A DNA stretch of 64,000 nucleotides, taken from Candidatus Pacearchaeota archaeon (GTDB lineage Archaea > Nanobdellota > Nanobdellia > UBA10117 > JAFCGA01). Positions 41,169 through 60,086 of this stretch are shown here, one piece after another (position 1 is the first letter of the stretch; each line of letters opens with the position of its first letter). A program made the translations under genes and the position numbers. The notes beneath the pieces are model-generated. The model saw only the letters and a list, made by a program, of their open reading frames with translations, did not search any database and was not told the origin of the DNA. The stretch is from positions 97,766 through 161,765 of the forward strand of contig JAFCGA010000001.1 in assembly GCA_017608345.1 (NCBI GenBank). The letters run 5' to 3'.

Positions 41169-43580
41169 ATGAAAAAGATAGCCATATTCTTAATGTTAAC
41201 TATCGCTCTAGCTAGTTTAGTTACTTTTGCAGATGCTAGCACAACTGAGCCACTTATAATTGAGGAATGGATTGACTTCGGTTGTCCATTTTCTGCGAGA
41301 GTGCAAGACGCTCTAGTCGGGATCCAAAACGAGTTTGGAGATCGTGTGCAGATAGAGCTTAAACATCACCCTTGGGAGATTCACGAAGGCGCATACGAAG
41401 CGGCACTAGCTTATGAATGTGCTAAGGATCAAGGCAAAGCAACAGAATATGCTGCTAAACTATTTTCGTACTACCCTGAATCCCTTAATGAGTTTGCTGA
41501 AGGAGAATTTATTAGGTATGCTAACGAGCTAAATCTCGATGAGACGCGGTTCGAAACCTGCCTGTCTTCGAGAGAATTTGAGCGAGTTATTGAATCAGAT
41601 ATGCAGGAAGCAAGGTCTAAGGGAGTAACTGGCACACCTACGTTACTTATCGGATCACAGACTATAACTGGTGCTCATCCTTATGAGAAAATCCGAGATG
41701 CAGTATTATCCGAGCTAGGAGATACTTGCATAGATTATATTTGCGAGAACGGAGAAACAGCTGAGTGCCATTTTGAAGGAGATACTTGCGTCTGCGAGGC
41801 TTGCGCAGATGAAGACGTACTAGAATGGGATGAACCAATTATTACATTTGATGATGGACAGGCTCCGCAGATTGGAAGTTGTTGGGTTCGAATGGACAAT
41901 GAATGGGTTCAGTTCAAATTCGATAATATTGATAAAACCAAAATTGATAGCTATGTGCTAGTTGAGCTTAATCTCGGAGTGACTAACCGAATGAGCGGCT
42001 CGGGGGGATTAGACGGCCTTCTTGACGTTGTGATCAATCCAGACAGTTCAGATTCTAAGACTTACCGAGAAGTATTATTCAATAACGTAGACACTAATAA
42101 TATAGTAAAAGAGTTCTATACTTCCGGATCATATGATACTAAAGCCTATGTCGCTATTCCAAAGGAATACATAAGCGATGACGGCGAATTAATAATTAAA
42201 GTAATTAGGCACAGAGATAATTCTCGTGCTCCTCAGGCTCCAACAGGACATCGAGTCCCGATACGAGCATACGGCGGAGAAAGGTATCTAGCAAACGTCT
42301 ATGAAAATAGCGATCCGCACACAGTTCACCTCGGAGTCAGCTCTCCTAGTTGCGAAGATGGAGCTAGAATAACTGCTGGAGAAGTAGTTGTAAAATCAGA
42401 CAGGATCGTTGAATTTACTTGTACAGATTCCGACGGCGGAGAGAACTACTACCTTCCCGGAGCTGCTTTACGGATCGAACAAGGCGAGTATTATAGCTAT
42501 ACGGATCGATGTATAATGCCAAATGGACAATCTAATGGCGGATACGTTACAGACGGAACAATATGGTACGATGATATCTATAGTTGTGATGGCGATGCTT
42601 GTCGGCTAGCAGAAGCCTTCTGTACTGACGCGTCAGACCCATTTATCGTTTATGACTGCCAGTACGGCTGCTCAAACGGAGCTTGTATTGAAGAAAGTAA
42701 TCAAGGAATAATCGTCGACGGGAGTCCATCAGATTGGGATGAAAGCGATGTTGTCTATACGTATTTAGGCGACGACAAGAATGAAGTGAGCCATACGATT
42801 CGGAAAGACGGTACCCCGAATTGGGTTAAAAGACTGTCCATTACTGATGATGGTGAGAAAATATACTTCTTAATGGAAATGAGAAATCCTATTTTATTCA
42901 ATTATAACGAACAAGAATACATAAAGCTAGATTTAGATGCTAATGAAAATACTGGCTGTGCAGGTAGTGAAATAAGTTTCACAATAACCGACCAGTACAA
43001 GTATCTGGGCGACGTAAGAGACTGCAGTGCAGGACCAAATTCAGACTTCAATACTGAAGAAATAGCAGTTTATGGGCAATATATTGAAGTATCTGCACCG
43101 CTATCCACCTTAGCACGTATCTATGGTCACGTAAGTAAAATCGGCATTTCTACTCAGCCAGGTGTATCACAACCACTATTCTATTATGTTGGAGATGAGG
43201 TTGCAGAAGAAGTAACTGAAGAAGTTATTGGAGATAGCTGCCCAATAGGTTGCATTTGTACTGAGGACTCAATAACTTGCGAAGGAAGCAGTAGTTCTGG
43301 TGGCGGAGCAGGTCAGCTAGCATGCATTTCCGGATGTAAGCTTAACGATAAGTGCTTAGCACACGGAATAAGAATAATGTTAGATGGTAAAAACTCCTTT
43401 TGCGATCTAAATAGCGAGTGGGAACTCCAGAAAGACACAGGAAAGAACTGTCAGAACAGCTATGAATGCGAGACTAACTTCTGCTCGAAAGGTGCTTGCG
43501 TAGATATTGCTGGGCAGATGGAAGAAAACAGAAGCTTGATGGAGAAGATATTAGCTTTCTTTAGAGGCTTGTTTGGGTAA
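41169..43580 (+). CDS. secreted DsbA-like thioredoxin-fold domain (CPFS instead of CxxC) fused to a ~600-aa Cys-rich extracellular region
   Basis: The ATG at 41169 follows a GAGAGG SD-like site. A signal peptide precedes EEWIDFGCPFSARV...KGVTGTPTLLIGSQTITGAHPYEKI (DsbA/FrnE family blocks), followed by many Cys pairs. Confidence 0.65.
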   Translation: MKKIAIFLMLTIALASLVTFADASTTEPLIIEEWIDFGCPFSARVQDALVGIQNEFGDRVQIELKHHPWEIHEGAYEAALAYECAKDQGKATEYAAKLFSYYPESLNEFAEGEFIRYANELNLDETRFETCLSSREFERVIESDMQEARSKGVTGTPTLLIGSQTITGAHPYEKIRDAVLSELGDTCIDYICENGETAECHFEGDTCVCEACADEDVLEWDEPIITFDDGQAPQIGSCWVRMDNEWVQFKFDNIDKTKIDSYVLVELNLGVTNRMSGSGGLDGLLDVVINPDSSDSKTYREVLFNNVDTNNIVKEFYTSGSYDTKAYVAIPKEYISDDGELIIKVIRHRDNSRAPQAPTGHRVPIRAYGGERYLANVYENSDPHTVHLGVSSPSCEDGARITAGEVVVKSDRIVEFTCTDSDGGENYYLPGAALRIEQGEYYSYTDRCIMPNGQSNGGYVTDGTIWYDDIYSCDGDACRLAEAFCTDASDPFIVYDCQYGCSNGACIEESNQGIIVDGSPSDWDESDVVYTYLGDDKNEVSHTIRKDGTPNWVKRLSITDDGEKIYFLMEMRNPILFNYNEQEYIKLDLDANENTGCAGSEISFTITDQYKYLGDVRDCSAGPNSDFNTEEIAVYGQYIEVSAPLSTLARIYGHVSKIGISTQPGVSQPLFYYVGDEVAEEVTEEVIGDSCPIGCICTEDSITCEGSSSSGGGAGQLACISGCKLNDKCLAHGIRIMLDGKNSFCDLNSEWELQKDTGKNCQNSYECETNFCSKGACVDIAGQMEENRSLMEKILAFFRGLFG

Positions 43581-46203: not shown

Positions 46204-47079
46204 ATGCTAACTCGCAAACCAGCAGTAGCAGGCTCATTCTATGCAGCTGATCCAAATAAGCTAGCTAATCAACTCCAACAAGCTTTCAAAGCCTGTGGCG
46301 AGCCCGAGAAGCCTACCGATCGGAAGATAATCGCGGGGATTGTTCCGCATGCAGGCTACACCTATTCCGGATCCACAGCCACCTACGCTTACAAAGCTAT
46401 GGCAGAATCAAAACGCCCAGATACAATTATTCTTTTAGGACCAGACCACCGGGGCTTGGGAACGTCAGCTTCTATCTGGCAAGGCTCTGCGTGGGAAACG
46501 CCACTCGGACAGCTAGAAATAGATTACGAGCTCGGTAGAATTATTCTCCAAGAGGATCACATCTTTAACAAAGAGCTAGATCCGCATCAGGAAGAGCACT
46601 CGCTAGAAGTTCAGCTGCCTTTCATACAAGCAATTTACAAAGACCCGCCAAAGATCATTCCGGTCTCTATCTCTACGCAGTTGGACATAGCAATGGCTCG
46701 CAGGATGGGCGAAGCGATTTATCGCGCGACTAAGGGAAGAAACATAATATTCCTAGCTTCCTCAGATTTTACTCATTACGGCGTAAATTATGGCTATTTT
46801 CCCTTCTTTGGCTCATCAGCAGAGGTTGAAAAGCAAGTCCACGAGCTAGACATGACTGCTATCAAAGCAATCGAGGCGATAAAGCCAGATGAGTTTCTCG
46901 ACCACATTCAGCGAACAAAAGCCACGATTTGCGGAGCAATGCCCATAGCGATCCTACTAAATACACTAAAATCAATGAAAATAGAAAAAGGCAAGCTGCT
47001 AAAATATGCAACTTCAGCCGATGTTACTGGCGACCGTGAGAATTTTGTAGCTTACGCGAGTATTATTTTCGAGAAGTAA
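46204..47079 (+). CDS. MEMO1-family protein (AmmeMemoRadiSam system protein B)
   Basis: RKPAVAGSFY..., GIVPHAGYTYSG, LGPDH, EHSLEVQLPF and SSDFTHYG are the conserved Memo blocks. Confidence 0.8.
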   Translation: MLTRKPAVAGSFYAADPNKLANQLQQAFKACGEPEKPTDRKIIAGIVPHAGYTYSGSTATYAYKAMAESKRPDTIILLGPDHRGLGTSASIWQGSAWETPLGQLEIDYELGRIILQEDHIFNKELDPHQEEHSLEVQLPFIQAIYKDPPKIIPVSISTQLDIAMARRMGEAIYRATKGRNIIFLASSDFTHYGVNYGYFPFFGSSAEVEKQVHELDMTAIKAIEAIKPDEFLDHIQRTKATICGAMPIAILLNTLKSMKIEKGKLLKYATSADVTGDRENFVAYASIIFEK

Positions 47080-47125: not shown

Positions 47126-49363
47126 ATGAAAAAGCTAATTTTCCTAATAATAGCAGCTATGCTTTGCTTTAGCGTTGCTACTGCTGATGAAATTATAGAT
47201 GCAGATGGCGATGGCATTCCTAACGAAATTGATAATTGTGTAAGCATCCCAAACGAAGATCAGGCAGACGCCGATGGAGATGGCGTTGGTGATGTCTGTG
47301 ATACTTGTCCGGGATCAGATGATAGAAATGATAAGGATAATGATAATATCCCCGATGGATGTGATGCAGAGGCTTGCGGAGCAAATGCGGAATTAAAAAC
47401 TGTCGAAGGAGATATTTGGTGTGAATGCATCGACGACTACGAAGACGCTAATGGGGATCAATATGATGGCTGTGAAGTAGATACTCAAACTGATTATATT
47501 GTCGTAGATAATAATTGGATAGAAGCAGATTATAACGAAGGCGATAAAATAGTCATCGGAAATTCAGAATACTTCTTTGATTATAATGCTTTTACATCTA
47601 TCGAAGACGCAATTGATGCGGCAAACGAAGAAGAATTTGCACTTGATGCTCAAGTAGAACCCGTACCTGGAGACGGAGATTTCACGAGAAGTACTATCTA
47701 TGTTTATGAAGGTACTTATGAAGGATATAGCATAGGCATTGGAAAGAGTGTAGAAATAATTGGAGAAAATAAAGACACAACTATAATTAATGATCCTGAC
47801 TGCGGTAATGTTTTCGACATATTCCCAGATGGAGAGGTTCCAATCGCAGTAGCTCTTAGTGGCTTCACTCTTTCGGGCAATAACTGGATGGGTACAGAGG
47901 AGGACGAGACATATGCTATCTATGTAGATTCTGTAAGCAATATTGAATTGAATAATCTGATATTCACCAATGCGCAGAGGTATTACAACATATACATCAC
48001 GGATACGCTAGCAGGAACTATCGAAAATAGTGAAATAAGCAACGCATGTAGTGGAATCTATATCGAACAATCAAGCAATATAATTGTTCAAGATAATACT
48101 ATTGATTCAAACGGAGATGGAGAAATGTGCGGTGGAGACACTGGAGTAGACATCATAACTTCTAGCAATGTAAATTTACTTAGAAACACAATAATTGACA
48201 ACAACGGTGGAGTTAAAGTTGATGAGATTCAAGTCCCAGACGGCGGTGACGTTTTTAATCAGATGATCGAATGCAGTATTGACATCACACTTCTAGATAA
48301 TATAATTACTGGGAATTCAGGATACGGAGTTGCTTCTACCTGTGGTCAAACAGACGCAAGATTAAACTACTGGGGATCAGTAGATGGACCGAGCAGAGAT
48401 GGGACAGAAACCGATGGAGATTCAATAATTGGGGATGTACTATACTCCCCATGGTTTACTTCTGAAGACCTTAATTCAATCTTAGCTGAATCTGACTTAA
48501 ACGGAGAAACTAACATGCGAAGCATAACCGTTCCGGAATTAGAATTCTCAATTGGTGAAAATATATTAGTGGAGATACAAGACGGAACCACTATAAGTGG
48601 AGATACAGATCTATGGGATGGAACATTCAACTCGCCGGAGCTAGCAGAGAGCGCAGCAACAGCTCCTCCGACAACTGCAGGGTATACTAACTCGGTTGAT
48701 AATATAATTGAGATTGGTTTCCCAACTGCTAAACTTCTATTGAACAAAGCTGCAAAAATAACTCTTAGCGGAGTAACTGGAAGATTAATCGGATACACCC
48801 GAGCTGGAGAAGACTTCACTAAGATAACAACTCTATGTAAGGCTATCGATGACTCAAGCAATATAGATGGAAATGGAGATTGCTATTTCGACGATGGAAC
48901 TAACACAGTTATTTGGACTAAGCACTTCACTCAGTTTGTAACTTACACGCAGAGCGCTCTTCCAGCAGATCCAGCACCGACAATCACCAGTGGAAGATCT
49001 AGCAGCGGTTGTAGTCCGCTCTGGACTTGCGGAACTTGGTCAGATTGTACTAATGGAATCAAAACAAGACACTGTGATATCGTAAGAACCTGCGGCACAG
49101 CAGGACCAGAAACAACAAAAACTTGTGATATTCCGTTGATAGCTACATCTAGCGAGCCAGTTCAAGAAAAAGAACTAGAGCAAGTCAAATCTGACTTAAA
49201 CAATACTAAAAGCAATCGATTAGAAACCGGAAGCTTAGGAGTCGGACAAGCGACTAGCTTCATGGACGGACTCAGAGAAAGATGGTGGGCAATATTAGTA
49301 TTCCTTGGAATATTTGGATTACTAGCAGGTTTTGGGTTCAAGACTAAGAAGCAGAAGAAGTAA
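47126..49363 (+). CDS. surface protein: TSP type-3-like Ca-binding repeats, parallel beta-helix region, six-Cys module and C-terminal TM anchor
   Basis: A signal peptide precedes DADGDGIPNEIDNCVSIPNEDQADADGDGVGDVCDTC. Then come repetitive NosD/pectate-lyase-like I-x-N/G turns, CSPLWTCGTWSDCTNGIKTRHCDIVRTCGTAGPETTKTC, and ...LRERWWAILVFLGIFGLLAGFGFKTKKQKK. A GAGGT SD site lies 10 nt upstream. Confidence 0.7.
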   Translation: MKKLIFLIIAAMLCFSVATADEIIDADGDGIPNEIDNCVSIPNEDQADADGDGVGDVCDTCPGSDDRNDKDNDNIPDGCDAEACGANAELKTVEGDIWCECIDDYEDANGDQYDGCEVDTQTDYIVVDNNWIEADYNEGDKIVIGNSEYFFDYNAFTSIEDAIDAANEEEFALDAQVEPVPGDGDFTRSTIYVYEGTYEGYSIGIGKSVEIIGENKDTTIINDPDCGNVFDIFPDGEVPIAVALSGFTLSGNNWMGTEEDETYAIYVDSVSNIELNNLIFTNAQRYYNIYITDTLAGTIENSEISNACSGIYIEQSSNIIVQDNTIDSNGDGEMCGGDTGVDIITSSNVNLLRNTIIDNNGGVKVDEIQVPDGGDVFNQMIECSIDITLLDNIITGNSGYGVASTCGQTDARLNYWGSVDGPSRDGTETDGDSIIGDVLYSPWFTSEDLNSILAESDLNGETNMRSITVPELEFSIGENILVEIQDGTTISGDTDLWDGTFNSPELAESAATAPPTTAGYTNSVDNIIEIGFPTAKLLLNKAAKITLSGVTGRLIGYTRAGEDFTKITTLCKAIDDSSNIDGNGDCYFDDGTNTVIWTKHFTQFVTYTQSALPADPAPTITSGRSSSGCSPLWTCGTWSDCTNGIKTRHCDIVRTCGTAGPETTKTCDIPLIATSSEPVQEKELEQVKSDLNNTKSNRLETGSLGVGQATSFMDGLRERWWAILVFLGIFGLLAGFGFKTKKQKK

Positions 49364-49400
49364 TTCTTCTTTTCTTTTCTGATTTTTTTATTTTATTAAT
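49364..49400 (+). terminator. T-rich tract (TTCTTCTTTTCTTTTCTGATTTTTTTATTTTATT), a probable archaeal oligo-T terminator
   Basis: Multiple T4-T7 runs directly after the stop codon. Confidence 0.4.
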
Positions 49401-49546
49401 CTGCTGATTGATTTATTCGAAAGATTAATGCGAAGTTTTTATCTGATTAACCGAGATTTTCTTGTTTTAATTTTTACTACTATTCTCGATAACATAAAAT
49501 AATATAAAGGTTCTACCAATAATTAATCCATAGCAGAGGTTTTAGG

Positions 49547-52500
49547 ATGAAAAAGGCAATTAAGAAAGTAATATCTATAATTATTATAGCTGCAGTGTTT
49601 ATTTTAGTAGTACCAATCATAACTGCAGGTGCAACTGAGGCAAGTATTGTTGTAAGTGAAGTTCAAACAGATAGTACTGTTGGTGCAGGAGGCACAGCAG
49701 ATGATTGGGTCGAACTGTATAACCCAACAGATTCTGCGGTGATTTTAGATGGCTGGTCAATCCAAGAAGGATTAAGTGATGGATCTTCTTTTTATCGGAA
49801 AGAACTAATTGGAACAATCCCCGCACAGGGTTATTTCTTAATCGTTAGAAGTGATGCAGATTCTTCACTAACAGACCTAGCGGATGTAATTGCAGCAACT
49901 AGTTTTTCGCTAACAGACGATAATGTTATTTATTTAGTTAATAATAATGAAGATATTACTGGTGCAGATGATCCAGATATTGTTGATTTAGTTGGATTTG
50001 GAGATTCTACCATTTTTGAAGGCACTGGCACTGCAGCTAATCCTGCTGAAAGTGGAAGCATAGAAAGAAAATCTGGAGAGATTCATTCCGAAGGAAAGGG
50101 AAATGGATGGGATAGTAATGATAATTCTGCTGACTTCTTTGTCTCAACTCCAAATCCACAGAATACGGCGAGCACTTCTGAAGCGCCGCCGCTAGACGTC
50201 TGTAAGACAGGATGTGTTTATTCAACAATCCAATCTGCAATAGACGCTGCAACAGAAGGAGACACAATTAATGTTGCTGCTGGGACTTATACTGAAGACC
50301 TAACAATTGATATAGGAATTACTATGTCTGGTTCAGACGCGTCGGAAGTAACTGTAAATGGTGAACATACAATATCTTCAGACGATGTAACTTTGGAAGA
50401 AGTTACTTTTAATATAGCTGCAGATACTGCAGGAATATTAATTGATTCATCTTCTTCTACAATAAATAATATTATAATTACAGATTCTGTTTTTGATTTT
50501 CCAAGTAATCCGGGAACCGGAGTTGTAGGAATTATACTTGGTGGATATTCTTCACCAAATAAGGTATCAAATATATATATCAACAATAACGTATTCAATG
50601 GACCGGATAACAAAAACTGCAATCCTTGGAAAATCGGTGGAGGATTCGGTAGCCCGGTCTCTTGCGAAGTTCAAGACGTAGACTTTGAAAATAACGCTGT
50701 TGATAGATGTTCAACGCCAATAAATTTACAGGATAGTAATATTGATGACCTTTTAATAAATAATAATGTATATACAAACACAGACGGAGTTCTATATGTA
50801 TGGGCTCAAGATGGATCAGCACCATCCGGAGCTTTGTCTAACTTTGTATTTACAAACAACGATGTTGATTCTACGAATTCTTATGGTGTAGCTTTCTTCG
50901 ATAATGATCTAAATGGAGATACTTTTACCGATACGAACTTCGGAACAGGCAATAGGATCAATAATAATGAATTCGTCGGAATTACTGAAACATATGGATT
51001 AAAATCTCTTAGCATGCTAGCAGATCTAACTACTTATGAATTAGATGCAGAAAACAACTGGTGGGGCTGCAATGAAGGTCCTGGAGAAGCTGGCTGTGAT
51101 GCGGTAAGTGGAACTGTTGATTACACTCCATGGACAGTTCAAGCTGAAGACACTATCTCAACTACTAATGGAATAGCAGAAACAGTTGATACAGCTGGAA
51201 CAGCCGCGGGACTCACTATAACTACCATCGGAGATCAATCAGGAACAGTAACTATCCAGCAATCTAGCGAAGAATATCATGGCGGATTCGGAGCTACAGC
51301 ACTCGGAAAGTTCATCAATATTGAATCAACAATAGCTAATGAAGATATCTCCGAAGTTGAGATAAGAATTAGTTATACTGATGATGAGCTTACTGCAATC
51401 GGACTAGATGAAACTTCTCTGAAGCTATACTGGTGGAATTCTGCTAGCGAAGCATGGGAACTTCTAGGAAGTACGGGTGTTAATACAACTGGAAATTATG
51501 TGTGGGCCATCACAAACCACTTCAGCGATTTTGGAGTTGGGGGTGACCCAGATACTGACGCGCCAGTTATAACTGATGTTTACACTTCACCAAAATACGC
51601 TAGTCTAGCTGATAAGCTAGTGACAATATTTGCTACAATTGCAGATGGTGGAAGCGGAGTGAAACATTCTTTCTTATATTATCAAATCGGAGACGAAGAT
51701 TTACAAAATATTACTTTCAGTGGTCCACTAACTGGCGGAAGCGCGGGAATATTCCATGGAAATCCTCAAGATGGAATTGTAGTAAATTACCATATTAATT
51801 CTACAGATAATGTAGATAACAGCGCAAGATATCCTGGCTCGGGCTGGCTAAGCTATACTTATGATGGCACAGATCCAGTCACAACCTTGACAATCGACGA
51901 TCCGAAATACGGCTCGACATTCATTAGCTCTTCAACAAGTATCGAGCTAAGCTGCACTGATGCGACTAGCGGCTGCAACAAAACATACTATCGCATTAAT
52001 GAAGGTAGCGTTACTGAATATACTACTCCTTTCACCGTCGCTAATGAAGATGGAGATCATACAATACATTATTACAGCGTAGATAATGCAACAAATGAGG
52101 AAAACTCAACACCGGAAGTAATAACTCTAGATAATAGCGCCCCAATCACCACAGATAATGCAGCAAGTGATTGGCAAGGCGCCGACCTAGTCGTAGGTCT
52201 TACACCAACAGATGGCTCAGGAAGCGGTGTAAACATTACTAAATATTGTGTTGACACAACCGGAGCGTGTACTCCAGCTACGCAAGGTATTTCTGCATCA
52301 GTTACCTGCGCTGCAGATAGCGTTTGTGAAAGTCAATATGTAAATTATCAATCGCAAGACAATCTTGGACAATGGGAAACTGCGCATATGTCAAGTATAA
52401 TTAAAATAGACAAAGAAAAGCCAGATACAACCGACGATGCTTCGAGTGATTGGCAAAATACGAATGCAACTGTCTCTCTTACCTGCGAGGATCATGAAGC

Positions 52501-55500
52501 TAGCGGGTGCCAAGTAACATATTATACAACTGACGGGAGCGACCCAACAACTGGATCTGCTCAAGGTACTGAGATTCTAGTAACAGCAGACGGAACAAGT
52601 ACGGTAAAGTACTTTTCAGTTGATAATGTCGGCAATTCAGAAGCAGTGCAAACTGCAGCAAATACCGTTAAGATCGATAGAACTGTTCCTACCATTACAG
52701 AGGATTATGCGAATGATGGAGTATGGGTAAATGAAGCTCAGGATGTCACTTTAGATCCAACCGATACCGGTGGTTCTGGAATTGGAGATGTAGAATATTG
52801 CGAAGGTGAGGGATGTGCTCCTAATATCGTGCTTGCTGCACCATACTTACTGTCTTACCTGGCAGACAAAAACACAATAGTAAGATACAAAGTAACAGAC
52901 AGGGCTACAAATCCAAGCGAAATTGATGAGTTTAACCTCAAGCTTGATATGACTATACCAACAATCACGGATAACTACGAACATGACGGTACATGGGTAT
53001 CAGAAAACCAAACTGTCACTCTTTCTCCAGCAGATGCTCTTAGTGGGATAAACGTTGTTAAATACTGCACCGGAGCAGCATGTACACCCGACATTACAAC
53101 AACAGACTACGCTATTGAGTTTAACGGAGATCAGGACACCATCTTAAGATACCAAACTTGGGACAACGCAAGTAATCCTAGCGAAATCGGAGAAGTTAAT
53201 ATTAAAATAGACACAACTGGACCAACAATTATCGATGACTATGCAAATGATGCTGTATGGGTAAACACAGATCAGACGATTACTCTAACTCCCAGTGATT
53301 CAGGTGGCTCAGGAATAAAAGAAGTAAAATATTGTAGCGGAGCTGAGTGCACACCTACAAATGTTCTAGCAGCACCTTATCAATTAGCTTACACTACTAA
53401 TCAAGATACAATTGTTAGGTATATTGTTGTAGATAATGCTAACCGAGAATCTGGGATCGGAGAATTTAATGTTAAGATTGACAAGACTATACCAACAGTT
53501 ACTGAGGATTACGGGAATGATGGTGTATGGGTAACTACCGATCAGACAGTTAATCTAACTCCTGCTGACGAAGGTGGCTCAGACATCGACGTCGTTGAAA
53601 TATGTTACAGTGCTGGGTGCACTCCATCTGACGAACTAGAGGAATACGCAATTTCCTTCACCGAAGATATAAACATGATGGTGAGATATCAAGCATGGGA
53701 TAATGCAGACAATCCATCGTTGATTGGCGAATTCAAGATCATGCTAGATAAGCATGCGCCAACATTCATAACAAATGAAGGAACAGACGGAGAAGCTGTA
53801 ACTAGCGATATAATCAATGTGAACGTTGATGATACTTACTTAGATGAAAGTTCATTAAATTATGGATTTAGCGCAGATATTAATTGCGAGGAAGAAGTTG
53901 CATGGGAAGAGGGATTTACAAATAACGTTGATTTCACAATCACTGGAGATCATACAGATTATTTATGCGTAAAAGCAGCGGATCTTGCAGGAAATATTGG
54001 CTATCATCTAGTTGGACAGTTGAATGTGGATAATTCAAATCCAACTTTGACAAGTGTATCTATTATGTCCAGTAATACGAACAATGCATATGCGCAAGTT
54101 GAAGATACAGTTACAATTGCATTTACTGCAAGTGAAGATCTTAAAGCGACTCCTGACGTCACAATTGATGGCAATACTGCAACAATAACGCAGCAAGAAA
54201 CTGCTAGCACTTGGATAGCAACTCGAACAATGCAAACTGGAGATACAGCTGGAGTTGTAACTTTCGCTATTGACTTCAGTGATCTTGCAGGTAATGATGG
54301 CACTCAAGTAACTGATGTTACTGACGAGAGCTCAGTCACGTTCGACGAAACTAATCCTGTTGGAGACCTCGCAGACATTCCGGTGGAATGGCAGAATACT
54401 GACGCTACGCTAACGCTATCTTGCACTGATTCAGAAGGAAGCGGATGCAATTCTAATGAATTCTACCTGACAGTTGTGCCGATTGGGGATTTTGGGGTGG
54501 ACATGGCTATAAGCAACGGTGGATGTACTCCTATCGACCAGTATACTGAACCAGTATTCGTATCTGAGCATTCAACAGTTTGTTGGAGAGTAACAGATAA
54601 CGCAGGGAATGTCCATTCGGGTTCAGCAGAAATCACTGTTGATGAAATTGATCCAGATCTAGAAGATGATTATGGCGAGAATAATGGAATGTGGGTAAAC
54701 AGCGACCAGACGATCACTTTATTCCATTCAGATAGCGGGAATTCAGATATAGATGACGTTCTAATCTGCTACGGATCTGAATGTGATCCGGATATTGACG
54801 GTACTGAACTAAATGAACCATATACAATCGACTTTAACAACGATACTGATACGGTTTTGAGATATCAAGCGTGGGATAATGCGGGTAATCCTTCAGGGGT
54901 TGGTGAAATAGACATTATGATAGACAAAACTATTCCTACAACAAATGATGATTATGCCTACGATGCGGTTTGGATAAATACAGACCAAACCATTACGCTA
55001 ATTCCTTATGACGAACTAAGCGGGGTGGATGAAGTGCTATACTGTATCGGAAGTGAATGCGAACCAGATCTGCTGATTAACGAACCTTATGATGTACCTT
55101 TCTCGGGAGACACTGTAGCAACTTTAAGATATCTAACAATTGATGCTGCAGGCAATTCTGGCGAAACAGAAGAAGTTATTGTAAAGATTGACGAGACCAT
55201 ACCAACGATTGCGGATGATTACCTCTTCGACGACATTTGGGTTAATACAAATCAATTAGTAACTCACACACCTACAGACGGTCTAAGTGATATAAAAGAA
55301 GTCAGATACTGCAATTCTGGTCCTGATTGCGAGCCAGACACACTATTAACTGGGCTCTATCAGATAACTTATGTAACTGACCAGGAAACTACGGTGAGAT
55401 ATCGAGCATGGGATAATGCAGACAATCCGTCTGTAGTTGGTGAATACATCGTCAAAATTGATACTGTATCTCCAGATGTAACTAATTCCGGACCTAGTGG

Positions 55501-56050
55501 AGAACTTGATTACAGCACGCCTACGCTAACCGTAACAACTGATAAGGAAACAATCTGCAAATATGACACTAATCTGAAGTCCTTTGATAATATGGCTAAT
55601 TACTTAGGTTCATCAGAGACGCTGGGGCTAGCACATACAGCTAACTTGAACCTATATGATGGTAGCTATACCTACTATATCCGATGCAGAGACAAAGCAA
55701 ACAATGAAATATCAACTACTGTAACCTTCACGATTGATACCGCAGCTAACTATGGATTTACTGAAAATTTAGTACCTACTTGGGATACTTTCACTCTCCC
55801 TAAATTCGTGCTAGAAGATCTCGGCTACACAACTCCTGAACTAAGAAGCCCTGAAAGTATATTAGCCTCCATCGCAAGCAATTATGAGATAATCTGGTAT
55901 TATGACGGAGTTAATTGGGTATCTTACAAACCAGATACACCTGAATGGACTAATGACTTAATTGAATTTAATGACATGCAGAGCAATCCTTATTGGATAA
56001 CAATGATCAATGAAGATAGACTTGAGATAGCCGATTTAAATGAAATATAG
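49547..56050 (+). CDS. giant surface/adhesin-like protein (2167 aa): N-terminal anchor, lamin-tail-domain-like module, beta-helix region, and arrays of ~90-aa Ig-like repeats
   Basis: The N-terminal TM or signal is followed by VVSEVQTDS...DDWVELYNPTDSAVILDGWSI (LTD signature) and NNN-rich beta-helix turns. There are at least 7 well-conserved plus at least 3 diverged repeats of the type (K/M)IDxTxPTxxDDYxxDxVWVNxDQTxTLxPxDxxSGIxxVxYCxGxxCxP...xRYxAWDNAxNPS. Confidence 0.8.
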   Translation: MKKAIKKVISIIIIAAVFILVVPIITAGATEASIVVSEVQTDSTVGAGGTADDWVELYNPTDSAVILDGWSIQEGLSDGSSFYRKELIGTIPAQGYFLIVRSDADSSLTDLADVIAATSFSLTDDNVIYLVNNNEDITGADDPDIVDLVGFGDSTIFEGTGTAANPAESGSIERKSGEIHSEGKGNGWDSNDNSADFFVSTPNPQNTASTSEAPPLDVCKTGCVYSTIQSAIDAATEGDTINVAAGTYTEDLTIDIGITMSGSDASEVTVNGEHTISSDDVTLEEVTFNIAADTAGILIDSSSSTINNIIITDSVFDFPSNPGTGVVGIILGGYSSPNKVSNIYINNNVFNGPDNKNCNPWKIGGGFGSPVSCEVQDVDFENNAVDRCSTPINLQDSNIDDLLINNNVYTNTDGVLYVWAQDGSAPSGALSNFVFTNNDVDSTNSYGVAFFDNDLNGDTFTDTNFGTGNRINNNEFVGITETYGLKSLSMLADLTTYELDAENNWWGCNEGPGEAGCDAVSGTVDYTPWTVQAEDTISTTNGIAETVDTAGTAAGLTITTIGDQSGTVTIQQSSEEYHGGFGATALGKFINIESTIANEDISEVEIRISYTDDELTAIGLDETSLKLYWWNSASEAWELLGSTGVNTTGNYVWAITNHFSDFGVGGDPDTDAPVITDVYTSPKYASLADKLVTIFATIADGGSGVKHSFLYYQIGDEDLQNITFSGPLTGGSAGIFHGNPQDGIVVNYHINSTDNVDNSARYPGSGWLSYTYDGTDPVTTLTIDDPKYGSTFISSSTSIELSCTDATSGCNKTYYRINEGSVTEYTTPFTVANEDGDHTIHYYSVDNATNEENSTPEVITLDNSAPITTDNAASDWQGADLVVGLTPTDGSGSGVNITKYCVDTTGACTPATQGISASVTCAADSVCESQYVNYQSQDNLGQWETAHMSSIIKIDKEKPDTTDDASSDWQNTNATVSLTCEDHEASGCQVTYYTTDGSDPTTGSAQGTEILVTADGTSTVKYFSVDNVGNSEAVQTAANTVKIDRTVPTITEDYANDGVWVNEAQDVTLDPTDTGGSGIGDVEYCEGEGCAPNIVLAAPYLLSYLADKNTIVRYKVTDRATNPSEIDEFNLKLDMTIPTITDNYEHDGTWVSENQTVTLSPADALSGINVVKYCTGAACTPDITTTDYAIEFNGDQDTILRYQTWDNASNPSEIGEVNIKIDTTGPTIIDDYANDAVWVNTDQTITLTPSDSGGSGIKEVKYCSGAECTPTNVLAAPYQLAYTTNQDTIVRYIVVDNANRESGIGEFNVKIDKTIPTVTEDYGNDGVWVTTDQTVNLTPADEGGSDIDVVEICYSAGCTPSDELEEYAISFTEDINMMVRYQAWDNADNPSLIGEFKIMLDKHAPTFITNEGTDGEAVTSDIINVNVDDTYLDESSLNYGFSADINCEEEVAWEEGFTNNVDFTITGDHTDYLCVKAADLAGNIGYHLVGQLNVDNSNPTLTSVSIMSSNTNNAYAQVEDTVTIAFTASEDLKATPDVTIDGNTATITQQETASTWIATRTMQTGDTAGVVTFAIDFSDLAGNDGTQVTDVTDESSVTFDETNPVGDLADIPVEWQNTDATLTLSCTDSEGSGCNSNEFYLTVVPIGDFGVDMAISNGGCTPIDQYTEPVFVSEHSTVCWRVTDNAGNVHSGSAEITVDEIDPDLEDDYGENNGMWVNSDQTITLFHSDSGNSDIDDVLICYGSECDPDIDGTELNEPYTIDFNNDTDTVLRYQAWDNAGNPSGVGEIDIMIDKTIPTTNDDYAYDAVWINTDQTITLIPYDELSGVDEVLYCIGSECEPDLLINEPYDVPFSGDTVATLRYLTIDAAGNSGETEEVIVKIDETIPTIADDYLFDDIWVNTNQLVTHTPTDGLSDIKEVRYCNSGPDCEPDTLLTGLYQITYVTDQETTVRYRAWDNADNPSVVGEYIVKIDTVSPDVTNSGPSGELDYSTPTLTVTTDKETICKYDTNLKSFDNMANYLGSSETLGLAHTANLNLYDGSYTYYIRCRDKANNEISTTVTFTIDTAANYGFTENLVPTWDTFTLPKFVLEDLGYTTPELRSPESILASIASNYEIIWYYDGVNWVSYKPDTPEWTNDLIEFNDMQSNPYWITMINEDRLEIADLNEI
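52670..53749 (+). repeat. four tandem 264-270-nt coding repeats (repeat block A) inside the giant protein gene
   Basis: Unit starts at 52670, 52940, 53204 and 53474 (KID-T-PT...). Each unit contains one Cys pair (for example KYCSGAECTP). Confidence 0.75.
54641..55462 (+). repeat. three further tandem ~265-280-nt coding repeats (repeat block B) of the same family
   Basis: Units start near 54641, 54920 and 55184, separated from block A by ~900 nt of non-repeat sequence. Confidence 0.7.
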
Positions 56051-56110
56051 GTCAATACTTCGGGATTAAGAAAAAACTATATAAGTGATTAAGATATTAC
56101 ATAACCTAAA

Positions 56111-57412
56111 ATGAAAAAGATAAACCTAATTTGGCTAACTGTATTACTTGCTCTTGTGTCTGTTAGTATGGCGCTAGCCCTTGGCGATCAAGCAGACGAA
56201 GAAATTCCTTGCGAGTTTTATGGTACAATTACTGTCAACGGAGATGATAACACCTTTGATACCACTACAGTCACAGCTTATTTAACTATGAGTGGAGAAA
56301 ATGCGAACTACCTATATGGTATAAATACAACTCCTCCTGCAGGTAATTACTTTATTCGAATAAGCAATATTGGTTCAGAGATAGGATTTAAGATAAGTGG
56401 CGTGAATGCAGATCAAGAACCAGTTATATGCGAATCAGGAATTAGAACCGAGCTAGATCTAACAGCTACGCTTCAGAGCATTATTGGTTCAGAAGAAGAT
56501 ATGCTAACAAATCTTGAAAACCTAGACGTAGTTGTTGGAGGATCAACTGACCTAACACAAACCTATTTTGGCGAGCAAACAGTACAATTCAAAGAGGGAG
56601 AGGATGTTCTGGTAGAATTTACTTTTGATTTTACTGGAAATCAGCTGAACTTAACTGCAATAACAATAAACAAACAAGATAACACTTCTGAGACTGGCGG
56701 AATAGAAATCAGCGGCATTGACCTACTGGAAGGTCAAACAAAAACAGCTTACATTGATATAATAAATAATAAAAGCTACGTATGTATTAAAGACGAAGAG
56801 AACGCTGCGATCTCAGAAATGGCTAATGATTGCGCCGGGGACTTCTCGGTTGCATGCGATGGAATAGAAACTGCTGAAGGATATGCTTGCACCGAAGAAG
56901 GCAGCAAATTAAAAATAACTGGTCTAAAGCACTCGGCTGTTACGGAATATACGCCAGCTGAAGAAGAAGCAGAAGAAGAAACAAGTACTGATGATACTAC
57001 GGACACTACTACAACTTCTACGGGCGGAGGCGGTGGCTGTTCACCTTATTGGACTTGCGAAGCATGGTCAGAATGTAGTGCAGATGGAACCCAAACTAGA
57101 GAATGTATAATATTAAGAACTTGTGGCGGTCCAGGCCCCGAGCTAGTTAAAGAATGTACTCCCACAATAGCACCCCTTGCAACAACTGCCGCAGAAGAAC
57201 AGCCAGAAGAAGTTGAAGCACAACCTGAAGAAACTACAATCAGCACGGAATCTGCAGCTGAGACCGGAAGTGTCGGAGTCGGAATGGCAACAGGAATTTT
57301 CGGGACACTAAAAGAGAGATGGTATGTAATTCCAATATTTATGACGATACTTGGGTTATTATCTGTGTTTGGATTCAGAGCTAGATCTGTAAAAAGAAAG
57401 CGCAAGCGCTAA
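56111..57412 (+). CDS. surface protein with the six-Cys module and a C-terminal TM anchor (433 aa)
   Basis: It has a signal peptide, CSPYWTCEAWSECSADGTQTRECIILRTCGGPGPELVKEC, and ...LKERWYVIPIFMTILGLLSVFGFRARSVKRKRKR. Confidence 0.65.
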   Translation: MKKINLIWLTVLLALVSVSMALALGDQADEEIPCEFYGTITVNGDDNTFDTTTVTAYLTMSGENANYLYGINTTPPAGNYFIRISNIGSEIGFKISGVNADQEPVICESGIRTELDLTATLQSIIGSEEDMLTNLENLDVVVGGSTDLTQTYFGEQTVQFKEGEDVLVEFTFDFTGNQLNLTAITINKQDNTSETGGIEISGIDLLEGQTKTAYIDIINNKSYVCIKDEENAAISEMANDCAGDFSVACDGIETAEGYACTEEGSKLKITGLKHSAVTEYTPAEEEAEEETSTDDTTDTTTTSTGGGGGCSPYWTCEAWSECSADGTQTRECIILRTCGGPGPELVKECTPTIAPLATTAAEEQPEEVEAQPEETTISTESAAETGSVGVGMATGIFGTLKERWYVIPIFMTILGLLSVFGFRARSVKRKRKR

Positions 57413-57450
57413 TTTTCTTTTTTATTCTTATTTTTTATTATATTCCTAAT
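57413..57450 (+). terminator. T-rich tract after the stop, a probable oligo-T terminator
   Basis: TTTTCTTTTTTATTCTTATTTTTTATTAT. Confidence 0.4.
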
Positions 57451-57494
57451 TTCAATCCGTAAGATTTATAATCAACCCGTGTTTGATATCGAAT

Positions 57495-57944
57495 ATGAAA
57501 AAAATAGTACTTCTTCCACTCCTCCTTATCTTTATGCTCGCACCAGTATTAGCTGAGTGCATACCGAACTTCTCATGTACTGACTGGTCAGAATGTAATG
57601 ACGCGGGTATACAAACTCGAACCTGCGCAGTAGTCAACATGTGTGGAGAGCCTAGCCCAGAGATAGCAAAGAGTTGTCTGCCACCAAATATGTCTCCCGA
57701 GGAACCCGAGATAGAAATAGAACAAGAAGAAACCGCCGAAGAAATCATCGAGCCAAAAGTAATTGATGGCGCGGGAATAACTGGAGCAGCGACAGTAGAT
57801 GGTTCACAAGTTACTGGCTTCACAGTCGGCGGAGTTAATTTATCAATCGACACTCTTGCAATTGCAGCTGCGCTATTCATTGGCGTAGGGATGATGGCTT
57901 TCGTTGGACGAAGACCAGCTCGCAAGAAGAAACGTAAGCGCTAA
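57495..57944 (+). CDS. small surface protein: signal peptide, six-Cys module, acidic linker, TM anchor and basic tail (149 aa from the ATG at 57495)
   Basis: MKKIVLLPLLLIFMLAPVLAECIPNFSCTDWSECNDAGIQTRTCAVVNMCGEPSPEIAKSC...AALFIGVGMMAFVGRRPARKKKRKR. Confidence 0.6.
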   Translation: MKKIVLLPLLLIFMLAPVLAECIPNFSCTDWSECNDAGIQTRTCAVVNMCGEPSPEIAKSCLPPNMSPEEPEIEIEQEETAEEIIEPKVIDGAGITGAATVDGSQVTGFTVGGVNLSIDTLAIAAALFIGVGMMAFVGRRPARKKKRKR

Positions 57945-58510: not shown

Positions 58511-59185
58511 GTGAAATCCGTAATTAAGCTAACTGATGTTTATAAAACATATATGATGGGTAGCGTAGAGGTGCAAGCAGTTAGGGGAATCAATCTAGAG
58601 ATACATTCTGGCGATTTCATTATATTAATGGGACCTTCTGGCAGCGGCAAATCAACAGCTATGAATTTAATCGGCTGCTTAGATACACCATCTCAAGGAA
58701 GCATCTTTCTAGATGGACAGGATATATCACAGTTAGACGAGAGTAAGCTAGCTCAGATTCGCGGCAAGAAGATTGGATTTGTATTTCAGAAGTTTAACTT
58801 ATTACCTGCACTAACTGCTAAAGAGAACGTAACAATCCCGATGATTTTTCAAGGGATTCCGGAGTCAGAAGCTAATCAACGAGCATTAGAACTTCTAAGA
58901 TTAGTTGAATTGCAAGATAGATCACATCACAAACCAAACGAACTGTCTGGTGGCGAACAGCAGCGAGTGGCTATCGCGCGAGCCCTAGCTAATGATCCCG
59001 AAATAATACTTGCTGACGAGCCAACAGGTAATTTAGATACGAATACGGGAAATACAATTATGGAACTTCTAGTCAGTCTAAACAAAAAAGGTAAGACGCT
59101 AATAGTAGTTACTCACGATCCAGATGTGAGAAAATTTGCTAAGAATGAGAAAGTCTTTAATATACGTGATGGTAAACTTATTTAA
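58511..59185 (+). CDS. ABC transporter ATP-binding protein (MacB/LolD-type)
   Basis: Walker [11 protein letters not shown]-loop, signature [15 protein letters not shown] and Walker [12 protein letters not shown]; GTG start. Confidence 0.9.
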
Positions 59186-59186
59186 T

Positions 59187-60086
59187 ATGAAAAAAATAAT
59201 CTTTGTTTTAGCGCTACTTGCATTTATACCGCTAGCTAGCGCGGCATTGAATACTGCAGAGCTAGGCAATGTTCTTGTCGAAGAGACAAAATATGATCCT
59301 TATCCTGCTGAGCCAGGTAAATATATAACGGTTTGGATTAGCGTAGACAATCAAGGATCAACAACGATGGATAATATGTTCTTCAAGTTTGATCCAGATT
59401 ATCCTTTTCAGCTAAATCCTGGACAAAGCGGAATAGTAAGCACTGGGAAGCTGCCTCCAGGTCAAGATAAGCTAGTTGAGTATACGCTAAGAGTTGACGA
59501 AGAGGCCATGGAAGGCAGTTATGAGCTTGATTTAAAACTATGTTATGGTAGCGATTGTTCTAGCTGGGCGAGAACTTATAGCCTTCAGATATCTGTCCGT
59601 ACCGGCGGAGAGCCAAAAGTCGAGCTAGGATTAGAAGAAACCGACGTATTCAATGCAGGTAAATTAGGTGAATTCACACTTAATATTGTAAATCGAGGTC
59701 AATTAGATACTAAATTCCTAAGAGTTGCAGTTCAGGAGTCAGATAACTATGAGATTATCGGGCCTGCGGAGAAATATATTGGAGAGCTAGAATCAGACGA
59801 CTTCGAGACTGCTCAATATCAAATATTCATTGAGAATAATATCGGAAGCGAAGAAAGTGAAATGTTAGAAGTTCCGATTAAAGTAGAATACAGCGATGAG
59901 AATAATAAAGACTATTCAGATTTCCAGACAATATATCTAAAGTCATATTCTACAGAAGATTTAGAAAAGATGCATCTCGCGGCTAGCAGTCTCACTTGGA
60001 TTTGGGTTCCAATTGTAATTATTATAGGTATTAGTTATTTCATCTATATACGGGTTAAAAAGAAGAAACAGCAGAAAAAGGCATAA
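59187..60086 (+). CDS. secreted protein with a C-terminal TM anchor, encoded between the ABC ATPase and permease (299 aa)
   Basis: The ATG at 59187 lies just after the ATPase stop. It has a signal peptide MKKIIFVLALLAFIPLASA and the C-terminal WIWVPIVIIIGISYFIYIRVKKKKQQKKA. Confidence 0.6.
   Translation: MKKIIFVLALLAFIPLASAALNTAELGNVLVEETKYDPYPAEPGKYITVWISVDNQGSTTMDNMFFKFDPDYPFQLNPGQSGIVSTGKLPPGQDKLVEYTLRVDEEAMEGSYELDLKLCYGSDCSSWARTYSLQISVRTGGEPKVELGLEETDVFNAGKLGEFTLNIVNRGQLDTKFLRVAVQESDNYEIIGPAEKYIGELESDDFETAQYQIFIENNIGSEESEMLEVPIKVEYSDENNKDYSDFQTIYLKSYSTEDLEKMHLAASSLTWIWVPIVIIIGISYFIYIRVKKKKQQKKA

Follow-up and report, generated by a model that had tools for sequence, protein, structure and literature searches.

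Three neighbouring surface-protein genes of an archaeal genome raise the question of whether they carry a dedicated sorting or attachment signal. The genes lie in a 64,000-nucleotide stretch of contig JAFCGA010000001.1 (Candidatus Pacearchaeota archaeon, assembly GCA_017608345.1), and "the window" means this whole stretch. An earlier reading of the window, made from the sequence only, noticed that each gene encodes a module with six cysteines (six-Cys) that is followed by a linker, a transmembrane helix, and a basic tail. It proposed that this is a stalk or sorting cassette that is shuffled among the surface proteins of this lineage. We found that the three genes are ordinary members of a widespread, unnamed domain family that resembles thrombospondin type-1 repeats (TSRs), with a plain membrane anchor. 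Most probably, the module is one copy of an extracellular mini-domain that is widespread but uncurated in DPANN archaea and Patescibacteria, has a TSR-like predicted fold, and serves as a stalk above an ordinary transmembrane anchor.

Four genes with a six-Cys module

From 47126 to 57944, the window contains four genes on the same strand, all for exported proteins (of 745, 2167, 433, and 153 amino acids, or aa). Three of these carry the module. The features, all on the + strand, are:

47126-49363, +, gene for the 745-aa type-I surface protein (open reading frame, or ORF; Pfam matches to Beta_helix, 2.7e-13, NosD, and TSP_3), with parts in this order: signal peptide, TSP3-like Ca-binding repeats, right-handed beta-helix, region common with the 433-aa paralog, six-Cys module, linker, transmembrane helix, basic tail
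49010-49126, +, six-Cys TSR-like module, copy 1 (aa 629-667 of the 745-aa protein; translation; profile E = 1e-20; 80 bits in a second profile search)
49226-49288, +, juxtamembrane motif TGSLGVGQATSFMDGLRERWW (aa 701-721 of the 745-aa protein; alignments; tail profile, 102 bits)
49283-49360, +, transmembrane helix WWAILVFLGIFGLLAGFGF and basic tail KTKKQKK of the 745-aa protein (hydropathy scan)
49547-56050, +, gene for the 2167-aa exported protein, between the 745-aa and 433-aa genes (ORF)
56111-57412, +, gene for the 433-aa type-I surface protein, which is paralogous to the C-terminal half of the 745-aa protein (ORF; BLASTP)
57038-57157, +, six-Cys TSR-like module, copy 2 (aa 310-349 of the 433-aa protein; translation; AlphaFold predicted local distance difference test, or pLDDT, of 95.2)
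57263-57325, +, juxtamembrane motif TGSVGVGMATGIFGTLKERWY (aa 385-405 of the 433-aa protein; alignments and tail profile; modelled as short helical turns leading into the transmembrane helix)
57320-57409, +, transmembrane helix WYVIPIFMTILGLLSVFGF and basic tail RARSVKRKRKR of the 433-aa protein (hydropathy scan; modelled as one long helix, pLDDT ~94)
57483-57944, +, gene for the minimal 153-aa protein: signal peptide, module, acidic linker, Gly-rich ITG segment, transmembrane helix, basic tail (ORF; the ATG at 57495 may be the true start)
57558-57677, +, six-Cys TSR-like module, copy 3 (aa 26-65 of the 153-aa protein; translation; profile E = 2e-22)
57777-57827, +, two "hTG" juxtamembrane motifs, ITGAATV and VTGFTV, before the transmembrane helix of the 153-aa protein (motif scan)
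57852-57941, +, transmembrane helix TLAIAAALFIGVGMMAFVG and basic tail RRPARKKKRKR of the 153-aa protein (hydropathy scan)

Translating the three module positions gives CSPLWTCGTWSDCTNGIKTRHCDIVRTCGTAGPETTKTC (39 aa), CSPYWTCEAWSECSADGTQTRECIILRTCGGPGPELVKEC, and CIPNFSCTDWSECNDAGIQTRTCAVVNMCGEPSPEIAKSC (40 aa each), which is exactly where the sequence-only reading had placed the modules. They share the pattern CxxxWxCxxWSxCxxxGxQTRxCx5Cx10C over 39-40 aa. All three carriers have a signal-peptide-like N-terminus. At the C-terminus, all three ORFs also have the order that had been described: the linker, which is acidic or of low complexity, leads to a single hydrophobic helix and then to a tail of Lys/Arg. 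Pfam and NCBIfam have no family that matches the 433-aa protein.

We searched the rest of this genome using six-frame ORFs of the whole assembly (1.05 Mb in 15 contigs, 88% complete) and found a fourth carrier, on contig C3. It is an 838-codon open frame, or 822 aa from the likely start, and it contains the module, a linker, TGTVGVGFASGLFGRIKERWY, a transmembrane helix, and a basic C-terminal extension. The motif TGS(L/V)GVGxAT...L(R/K)ERW(W/Y), which had been noticed before the helix in two of the window's carriers, is found in those two (the 745-aa and 433-aa proteins) and in the C3 protein as well. When we compared a profile of the module to all six-frame ORFs of the genome, the four copies had E values of 2e-22 to 3e-17, while the next ORF had E = 0.07. 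This gap implies that the match between the modules is far beyond chance.

Has the cassette moved between these genes, as had been suggested? BLASTP matches residues 69-429 of the 433-aa protein to 400-745 of the 745-aa protein, at 27% identity (E = 6e-31). Because this paralogy covers ~360 residues and extends beyond the cassette, it points to divergence of a gene family more than to shuffling of a cassette. For the C3 protein, the alignment to the 745-aa protein begins ~65 residues before the module. At the DNA level, the identity between cassettes is patchy (~67-73% over 70-80 bases), and this, together with the ~360-residue alignment of the paralogs, led us to reject recent cassette shuffling or gene conversion. 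Judging from these alignments, the four genes are diverged paralogs with a common C-terminal half, not recipients of a recently moved cassette. Their ectodomains differ: the 745-aa protein has TSP3-like Ca-binding repeats and a beta-helix, and the 153-aa protein has none. The repeats in the ectodomain of the C3 protein look, by eye, as if they may be Ig-like.

A widespread domain family that resembles TSRs

No family in Pfam or NCBIfam matches the module, whether we searched with whole proteins or with isolated modules at E ≤ 10. Against PDB sequences, a profile of the module matched only a 24-residue peptide (HSTX-I, E = 0.22), which we consider to be noise. Thus, the module does not belong to any curated family that we could find in these three resources. 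We also found no description of it in full-text literature searches on thrombospondin or cysteine-rich proteins in DPANN, the candidate phyla radiation (CPR), or Woesearchaeota. A word-indexed homology search with residues 300-433 of the 433-aa protein returned that protein alone.

We searched 1.84 billion representative proteins exhaustively with HMMER and found 7,954 clusters with E ≤ 1e-3, of which 1,866 had E ≤ 1e-10 and 216 had E ≤ 1e-30 (these are counts of representatives at 50% identity). Across the family, there are 1-18 copies per protein, and the top proteins from the HMMER search have 3 to 18. Pfam leaves the repeats of these multi-copy relatives uncovered and matches only accessory domains (PG_binding_1, CARDB, and Kre9_KNH). 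One of the top hits is encoded next to UvrA and UvrC and has peptidoglycan-binding domains, consistent with that protein being bacterial.

Within the phylum, a 23-sequence profile (E ≤ 1e-4) identified at least one copy of the module in 313/401 genomes and in 229/281 genera, mostly with 1-13 matches per genome. In the same order as our archaeon, 14/39 genomes contain it. A pattern scan with one genome per species identified 267 relatives. Among the best 80 of these with a named record, 62 are archaeal (Woese-, Pace-, Nano-, Aenigmat-, Iain-, and Micrarchaeota, as well as unclassified archaea) and 18 are bacterial. The bacterial relatives are mostly from Patescibacteria (Buchanan-, Staskawicz-, Kerfeld-, and Parcubacteria); the others are one from Omnitrophota and three from metagenome-assembled genomes that are labelled as Gammaproteobacteria. 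So, the module is not specific to this lineage but is part of a huge family across DPANN and Patescibacteria.

The consensus of the family, from 651 distinct copies, is CtpnWxCxxWsxCxngxQtRtCtDxNxCgtxxxkPxxxqsC. Columns C1, C7, W10, C13, R21, C23, C29, and C40 are invariant and W5 is nearly so. All four copies from our genome match the family profile (A3); the two among the matches listed score 55.6-56.1 bits over positions 1-41.

Where in the protein the module sits varies. In two relatives (L013 and L023), it lies directly after the signal peptide of a larger protein, and in L006 there are five copies in tandem. In L044, L050, and L049, the module is in the middle of the protein, with other domains after it, among them PGF-pre-PGF-like and Hint-like segments. 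On the other hand, among archaeal relatives from the genome search, a transmembrane helix lies within 150 aa after the last module in 30/51 ORFs (with a median gap of ~35 aa). The 150 best database hits have a bias towards multi-copy and partly bacterial proteins, and just 14 of them have the last module within 140 aa of a C-terminal anchor. Minimal proteins that consist of a signal peptide, module, linker, and transmembrane helix, like the 153-aa protein, recur in relatives (L009, 129 aa; L017, 170 aa). The idea that the module is tied to a C-terminal anchor therefore holds in part: use as a membrane-proximal stalk is common, while N-terminal and mid-protein copies and arrays of up to 18 copies occur as well. 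The module is an independent domain, and its membrane-proximal "stalk" use is common in the phylum.

We noticed two other features of these relatives. In L049 (G543:C29), a Hint/intein-like segment, CFPAGTKILMADN...HN, comes directly after the six-Cys module, which suggests that L049 could be an autoprocessing surface protein. Also, several module-bearing relatives (L058, L063, L064, L062, and L018) have the motif L..xGW(P/S)xxx(I/V)(N/D)KA(L/I) on the cytoplasmic side, just inside the membrane. This stretch looks like a small conserved cytoplasmic domain.

To the sequence-only reading, the spacing of the module's conserved residues was reminiscent of TSRs, and it suggested predicting the structure. 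The AlphaFold2 model of the module, based on a 23-sequence alignment, is confident: the mean pLDDT is 95.2, 38/40 residues are at 90 or above, and there are four short strands. When we compared the model to the PDB with Foldseek, there were no matches at E ≤ 0.001. Among the 11 matches listed, most are TSR-bearing or TSR-like structures. The best is the ectodomain of Unc5A (E = 0.55, probability 0.91, template-modelling score 0.58 over the query); the list also includes six chains from entries for complement C5b-6 or the membrane attack complex and two entries for pleiotrophin.

We also compared profiles with hhalign, using a small set of real TSRs taken from PDB alignments. Only the core, WSxC..GxQTR, aligns (probability 41%); with a 400-copy profile of the module, the probability is 27%. 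These alignments require deletions of 4 and 2 residues, at the CSxTC and at the second Arg of the RxR. There is no TSP_1-type match from Pfam to the whole proteins (E ≤ 1) or the isolated modules (E ≤ 10). The module also does not have the WxxW(xxW)/RxR ladders of TSRs (the CWR layers), as it has only W5, W10, and a single invariant Arg. The TSR-like appearance of a disulfide-type extracellular mini-domain thus survives closer examination, with a likeness that is below significance.

Another protein in this genome has repeats that look closer to canonical TSRs than the six-Cys module does. It is a giant surface protein on contig C13 (minus strand; a 2100-codon open frame whose stop-to-stop start is at reverse-strand offset 28654), with at least four tandem repeats of ~55 aa, CD(Y/F)CTPxxxNTSWSxWxxxxxC..DT..Q.R....YD...CGE..NQTF.EYQ. 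After the repeats, it has a PGF-pre-PGF-like domain, a transmembrane helix, and a K-rich tail, and its N-terminus has the cytoplasmic GW(P/S) motif (HAGWDESLVNKTI). We considered its "NTSWSxW" repeats as a bridge to TSRs and dropped the idea: Pfam gave no TSP_1 match.

Anchor, juxtamembrane motifs, and a proposed mechanism

Dedicated sorting systems include PGF-CTERM with archaeosortase, PEP-CTERM with exosortase, and LPXTG with sortase. By analogy, the conserved motif, the transmembrane helix, and the basic tail might be recognized by a dedicated enzyme that cleaves off the helix, so that the protein becomes attached to a lipid or to the envelope. The order of the parts, with a conserved motif and then a C-terminal transmembrane helix and a Lys/Arg tail, is that of the known signals, and the motif is conserved in three paralogs. 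However, we did not find the enzyme. In the 88%-complete genome, there are no matches to exosortase/archaeosortase (PF09721), sortase (PF04203), or rhomboid (PF01694), while the control genomes did match (14/14 of them for rhomboid). The sequence-only reading had proposed checking for co-occurrence with archaeosortase or rhombosortase, and neither was detected in this genome. For the archaeosortase family TIGR04178, the hit at C1:26302-26487 scores 14.4 bits (the cut-off is 23 bits) and lies in an 81-aa frame with an internal TGA, so we rejected it.

The tails themselves do not resemble known sorting signals either. The curated CTERM models of NCBIfam do not match the full proteins, and they do not match the tails of the four module proteins even at E ≤ 10. 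There is no LPXTG in the tails of the three window proteins. Known sorting motifs have 3-5 residues, whereas this motif has 21 and, in the model, continues without a break into the transmembrane helix. And the 153-aa protein has the module and the anchor without the motif.

Furthermore, the anchor is not special to these proteins. In this genome, 36 ORFs pass a filter on hydropathy and charge for a transmembrane helix with a basic tail. Just 5 of these bear the module or the motif, and several of the others are polytopic or are probably spurious. The motif is in only 3 proteins, and many other ORFs that lack the module and the motif end in the same way. A transmembrane helix with a basic tail is the general C-terminal ending of this genome's surface proteins.

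For instance, at least six large proteins from this genome have a last domain of the PGF-pre-PGF type that ends with GFSYFAITGE, and then an acidic/Pro linker, a transmembrane helix, and a K-rich tail (examples are C1_-_56745, C4_-_28785, C6_-_38466, C6_-_31655, and C13_+_8662). The TIGR04213 model hits two of these proteins (E = 5e-6 and 3e-4), both under the curated cut-off. The genome that carries them has no PGF-CTERM and no archaeosortase that we could find.

Outside of this genome, the motif is hard to find. Across 401 genomes of the class, a profile of the tail (GVGxAT...ERW and the transmembrane helix) is strong only for three proteins from our own genome. There are six other hits, at 16-22 bits, and chance alone would give about as many at that threshold. 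Three of these six are weak look-alikes that would favor a signal, as they sit before a C-terminal transmembrane helix in distant genomes of the class: SSGIGSATGFFNNLKADLWW in L034, VTGFSINKTGEMFKEKWYY in L035, and PLGVSAATGIFRQMKTNW in L038, where a six-Cys module and a linker precede it. Taken together, these results make a cleaved sorting cassette very improbable, and the missing models, the missing enzymes, and the generic anchor leave the original proposal of a sorting or processing signal unsupported.

To us, the motif looks like a juxtamembrane cap, shared by a small group of paralogs, on a permanent type-I anchor. When the cassette of the 433-aa protein is modelled with AlphaFold, the module is confident, residues 57-89 are disordered, and GIFG and KER are in short helical turns. 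From residue 101 onward, a single long helix extends to the end (pLDDT ~94 at its start), and KERW begins the transmembrane helix.

The 153-aa protein has a different juxtamembrane motif, "hTG", which we searched for with the pattern [ILVFM]TG.[AVILT][VIT]. We considered a match to be near the membrane if it was within 35 residues of a predicted transmembrane helix. The densities per 1000 aa were:

This genome: 0.41 near transmembrane helices, 0.09 elsewhere
150 database proteins: 0.82 near transmembrane helices, 0.17 elsewhere
Loci from the phylum: 1.6 near transmembrane helices, 0.07 elsewhere

This is an enrichment of 4.5-fold in our genome and 5- to 24-fold in the relatives' proteins, from few occurrences (11, 6, and 4). 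The motif occurs after N-terminal anchors (GSGITGAAVSN, PGITGLVVEG) and before C-terminal anchors (GAGITGAATV and VTGFTV in the 153-aa protein; RITGAVVGGGATSW, followed by a transmembrane helix, in L061). There are many further sites across the genome and in loci L044, L056, L061, and L063. Also, RITGAVVGGGATSW from L061 resembles ETGSLGVGQATSF from the 745-aa protein. The GVGxAT...ERW motif looks like a local marker of the paralog group and a variant of a phylum-wide juxtamembrane hTG motif.

Could these juxtamembrane stretches (hTGxhV and GVGxAT...ERW) dock the proteins, without any cleavage, to a partner that they share (for example, the S-layer, a neighboring protein, or a host-contact complex)? 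The enrichment near membranes, the occurrence beside both N-terminal and C-terminal anchors, the similarity between L061 and the 745-aa protein, and the FAITG strand that also ends our genome's PGF-pre-PGF domains would all fit. But the counts are small, the motif is short and degenerate, and there is no candidate for the partner. The enrichment could also reflect the biased composition of Gly/Thr/Val-rich linkers beside membranes. We consider docking to be a tentative idea that is probably wrong, although it is less doubtful than cleavage.

If the module is a stalk above a plain anchor, then the mechanism might be as follows. The four proteins would be exported via Sec by their N-terminal signal peptides. 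They would remain in the membrane as type-I proteins, with the transmembrane helix acting as a stop-transfer sequence and the Lys/Arg tail in the cytoplasm (the positive-inside rule). The GVGxAT...(K/R)ERW(W/Y) stretch would lead into and cap the transmembrane helix, rather than acting as a sortase-type signal. The module would lie ~50-60 residues outside of the membrane, on a disordered acidic/Pro/Thr linker, as the last folded unit below a variable ectodomain (beta-helix, Ig-like repeats, or none). There, it could be a rigid and protease-resistant stalk or contact element of adhesin-like surface proteins. This topology, and the role in stalk formation or binding, we infer. Minimal proteins that display nothing but the module suggest that it has a binding role of its own.

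The module itself would be a beta-rich knot, with six invariant Cys, presumably in three disulfides, around the W...W-S...G-x-Q-T-R core. It would be oxidized outside of the cell, and a DsbA-like protein is a candidate to form or isomerize the disulfides:

41169-43580, +, gene for an exported DsbA-like protein with a thioredoxin fold, 803 aa (Pfam DSBA, 2.9e-15; Thioredoxin_4, 2.6e-15)

This gene is 3.5 kb upstream of the first of the three module genes. The protein has an N-terminal thioredoxin domain and a long Cys-rich C-terminal part without the six-Cys module, and we view it, from its domain matches, as a candidate extracellular disulfide oxidoreductase or isomerase.

Instead of disulfides, six invariant Cys within 40 residues could form a metal-binding cluster (zinc-ribbon-like or Fe-S). 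The habitats of DPANN archaea are often anoxic, and disulfides outside of the cell are less expected there. However, all of the carriers have signal peptides, and the module is extracytoplasmic on a type-I anchor. The model is beta-rich and TSR-like, with no pattern of His/Asp ligands, and the six Cys are the sole invariant potential ligands. A DsbA-like oxidoreductase is encoded in the window, and tandem arrays in exported proteins, here of up to 18 copies, are a typical feature of extracellular repeats that are rich in disulfides. We find a metal cluster hardly credible, even less so than a sorting cassette.

Several points weigh against our preferred account of a TSR-like stalk on a plain anchor. 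The likeness to TSRs is sub-significant (the best Foldseek match has E = 0.55, and hhalign gives 27-41% over 14-17 columns). Three paralogs share a juxtamembrane motif that is well conserved over 21 residues and has weak look-alikes in distant genomes, which a plain anchor leaves unexplained. With the genome 88% complete, a processing enzyme of another class may have escaped detection. Finally, the module may be either a binding unit or a passive spacer.

Neighboring genes, significance, and comparison with known systems

Directly upstream of the 745-aa gene is a Memo-like gene (46204-47079, + strand; PF01875, E = 2.5e-77; of the AmmeMemoRadiSam system protein B type). Its position next to the 745-aa gene is probably coincidental. 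Downstream of the cluster, 58511-60086 and the next ORF include an ABC (ATP-binding cassette) ATPase-like gene, with Walker motifs and an LSGGQ signature that we identified by eye. A downstream ORF of 404 aa may be a putative ABC permease. A downstream protein of 316 aa has a weak, sub-threshold CARDB-like match and ends with a transmembrane helix and a K-rich tail. The region downstream may be a neighborhood for surface proteins and ABC export.

For the window genes, the implication is that there is no new sorting system, just a plain membrane anchor and a common domain family. More broadly, surface proteins are the least understood part of the small genomes of DPANN and Patescibacteria, and both groups live attached to other cells. 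What is missing is an annotation: a putative disulfide domain of 40 residues, present in about four-fifths of the genomes of the phylum and in thousands of clusters, is absent from Pfam and NCBIfam. Naming this family would help in reading many giant surface proteins that are now "hypothetical".

It is also worth considering a bolder view, in which the module is a true minimal prokaryotic branch of the TSRs that expanded in, and was exchanged between, DPANN and Patescibacteria as two radiations of ultra-small organisms attached to hosts, and in which hTG and GVGxAT...ERW are the docking or recognition signal of an undescribed DPANN system for surface assembly or processing. We think that this combination is unlikely, somewhat more so than docking by itself. 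If the TSR-like fold did reflect common descent, then an adhesion module that is regarded as eukaryotic would gain a large prokaryotic branch.

How do the window proteins compare to known systems? Relative to the six-Cys family of DPANN and Patescibacteria, the window copies have the same six Cys, W5, W10, G-x-Q-T-R core, and overall length, as well as the same exported context and frequent membrane-proximal placement. They form a divergent subgroup: their C4-C5 loop is (D/I/A)(I/V)(V/L)(R/N)(T/M) instead of the family's tDxNx, and their last loop is two residues shorter. Also, the window proteins have a single copy each, whereas many relatives have tandem arrays.

Like TSRs (Pfam TSP_1, PF00090; PDB 1lsl, 7yyk, Unc5A 4v2a, and complement C6), the module is a small extracellular domain with six Cys. 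Both have the W-S-x-C ... G-x-(Q)-x-R-x-C core, and the fold predicted for the module is, like that of TSRs, layered and made of strands only. Surface proteins of the adhesion type use both, as single copies or in tandem. In contrast to TSRs, the module has ~40 aa instead of ~52 aa and lacks the position of the cysteine pair in CSxTCG. As modelled, it looks like a shortened TSR and would work like one, and any homology to the TSR family is tentative.

The tails of the window proteins are similar to those of proteins with PGF-CTERM (and archaeosortase A) or PGF-pre-PGF domains: in each, a membrane-proximal domain and then a linker of low complexity are followed by a C-terminal transmembrane helix and a basic tail. 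The PGF-pre-PGF-type proteins of this same genome share this build, with GFSYFAITGE, a linker, a transmembrane helix, and a K-rich tail. Unlike PGF-CTERM proteins, the window tails have no PGF motif and no TIGR04126-type match, and no archaeosortase was found in the genome. The helix in the window proteins is best read as a permanent anchor, unlike the helix of PGF-CTERM.

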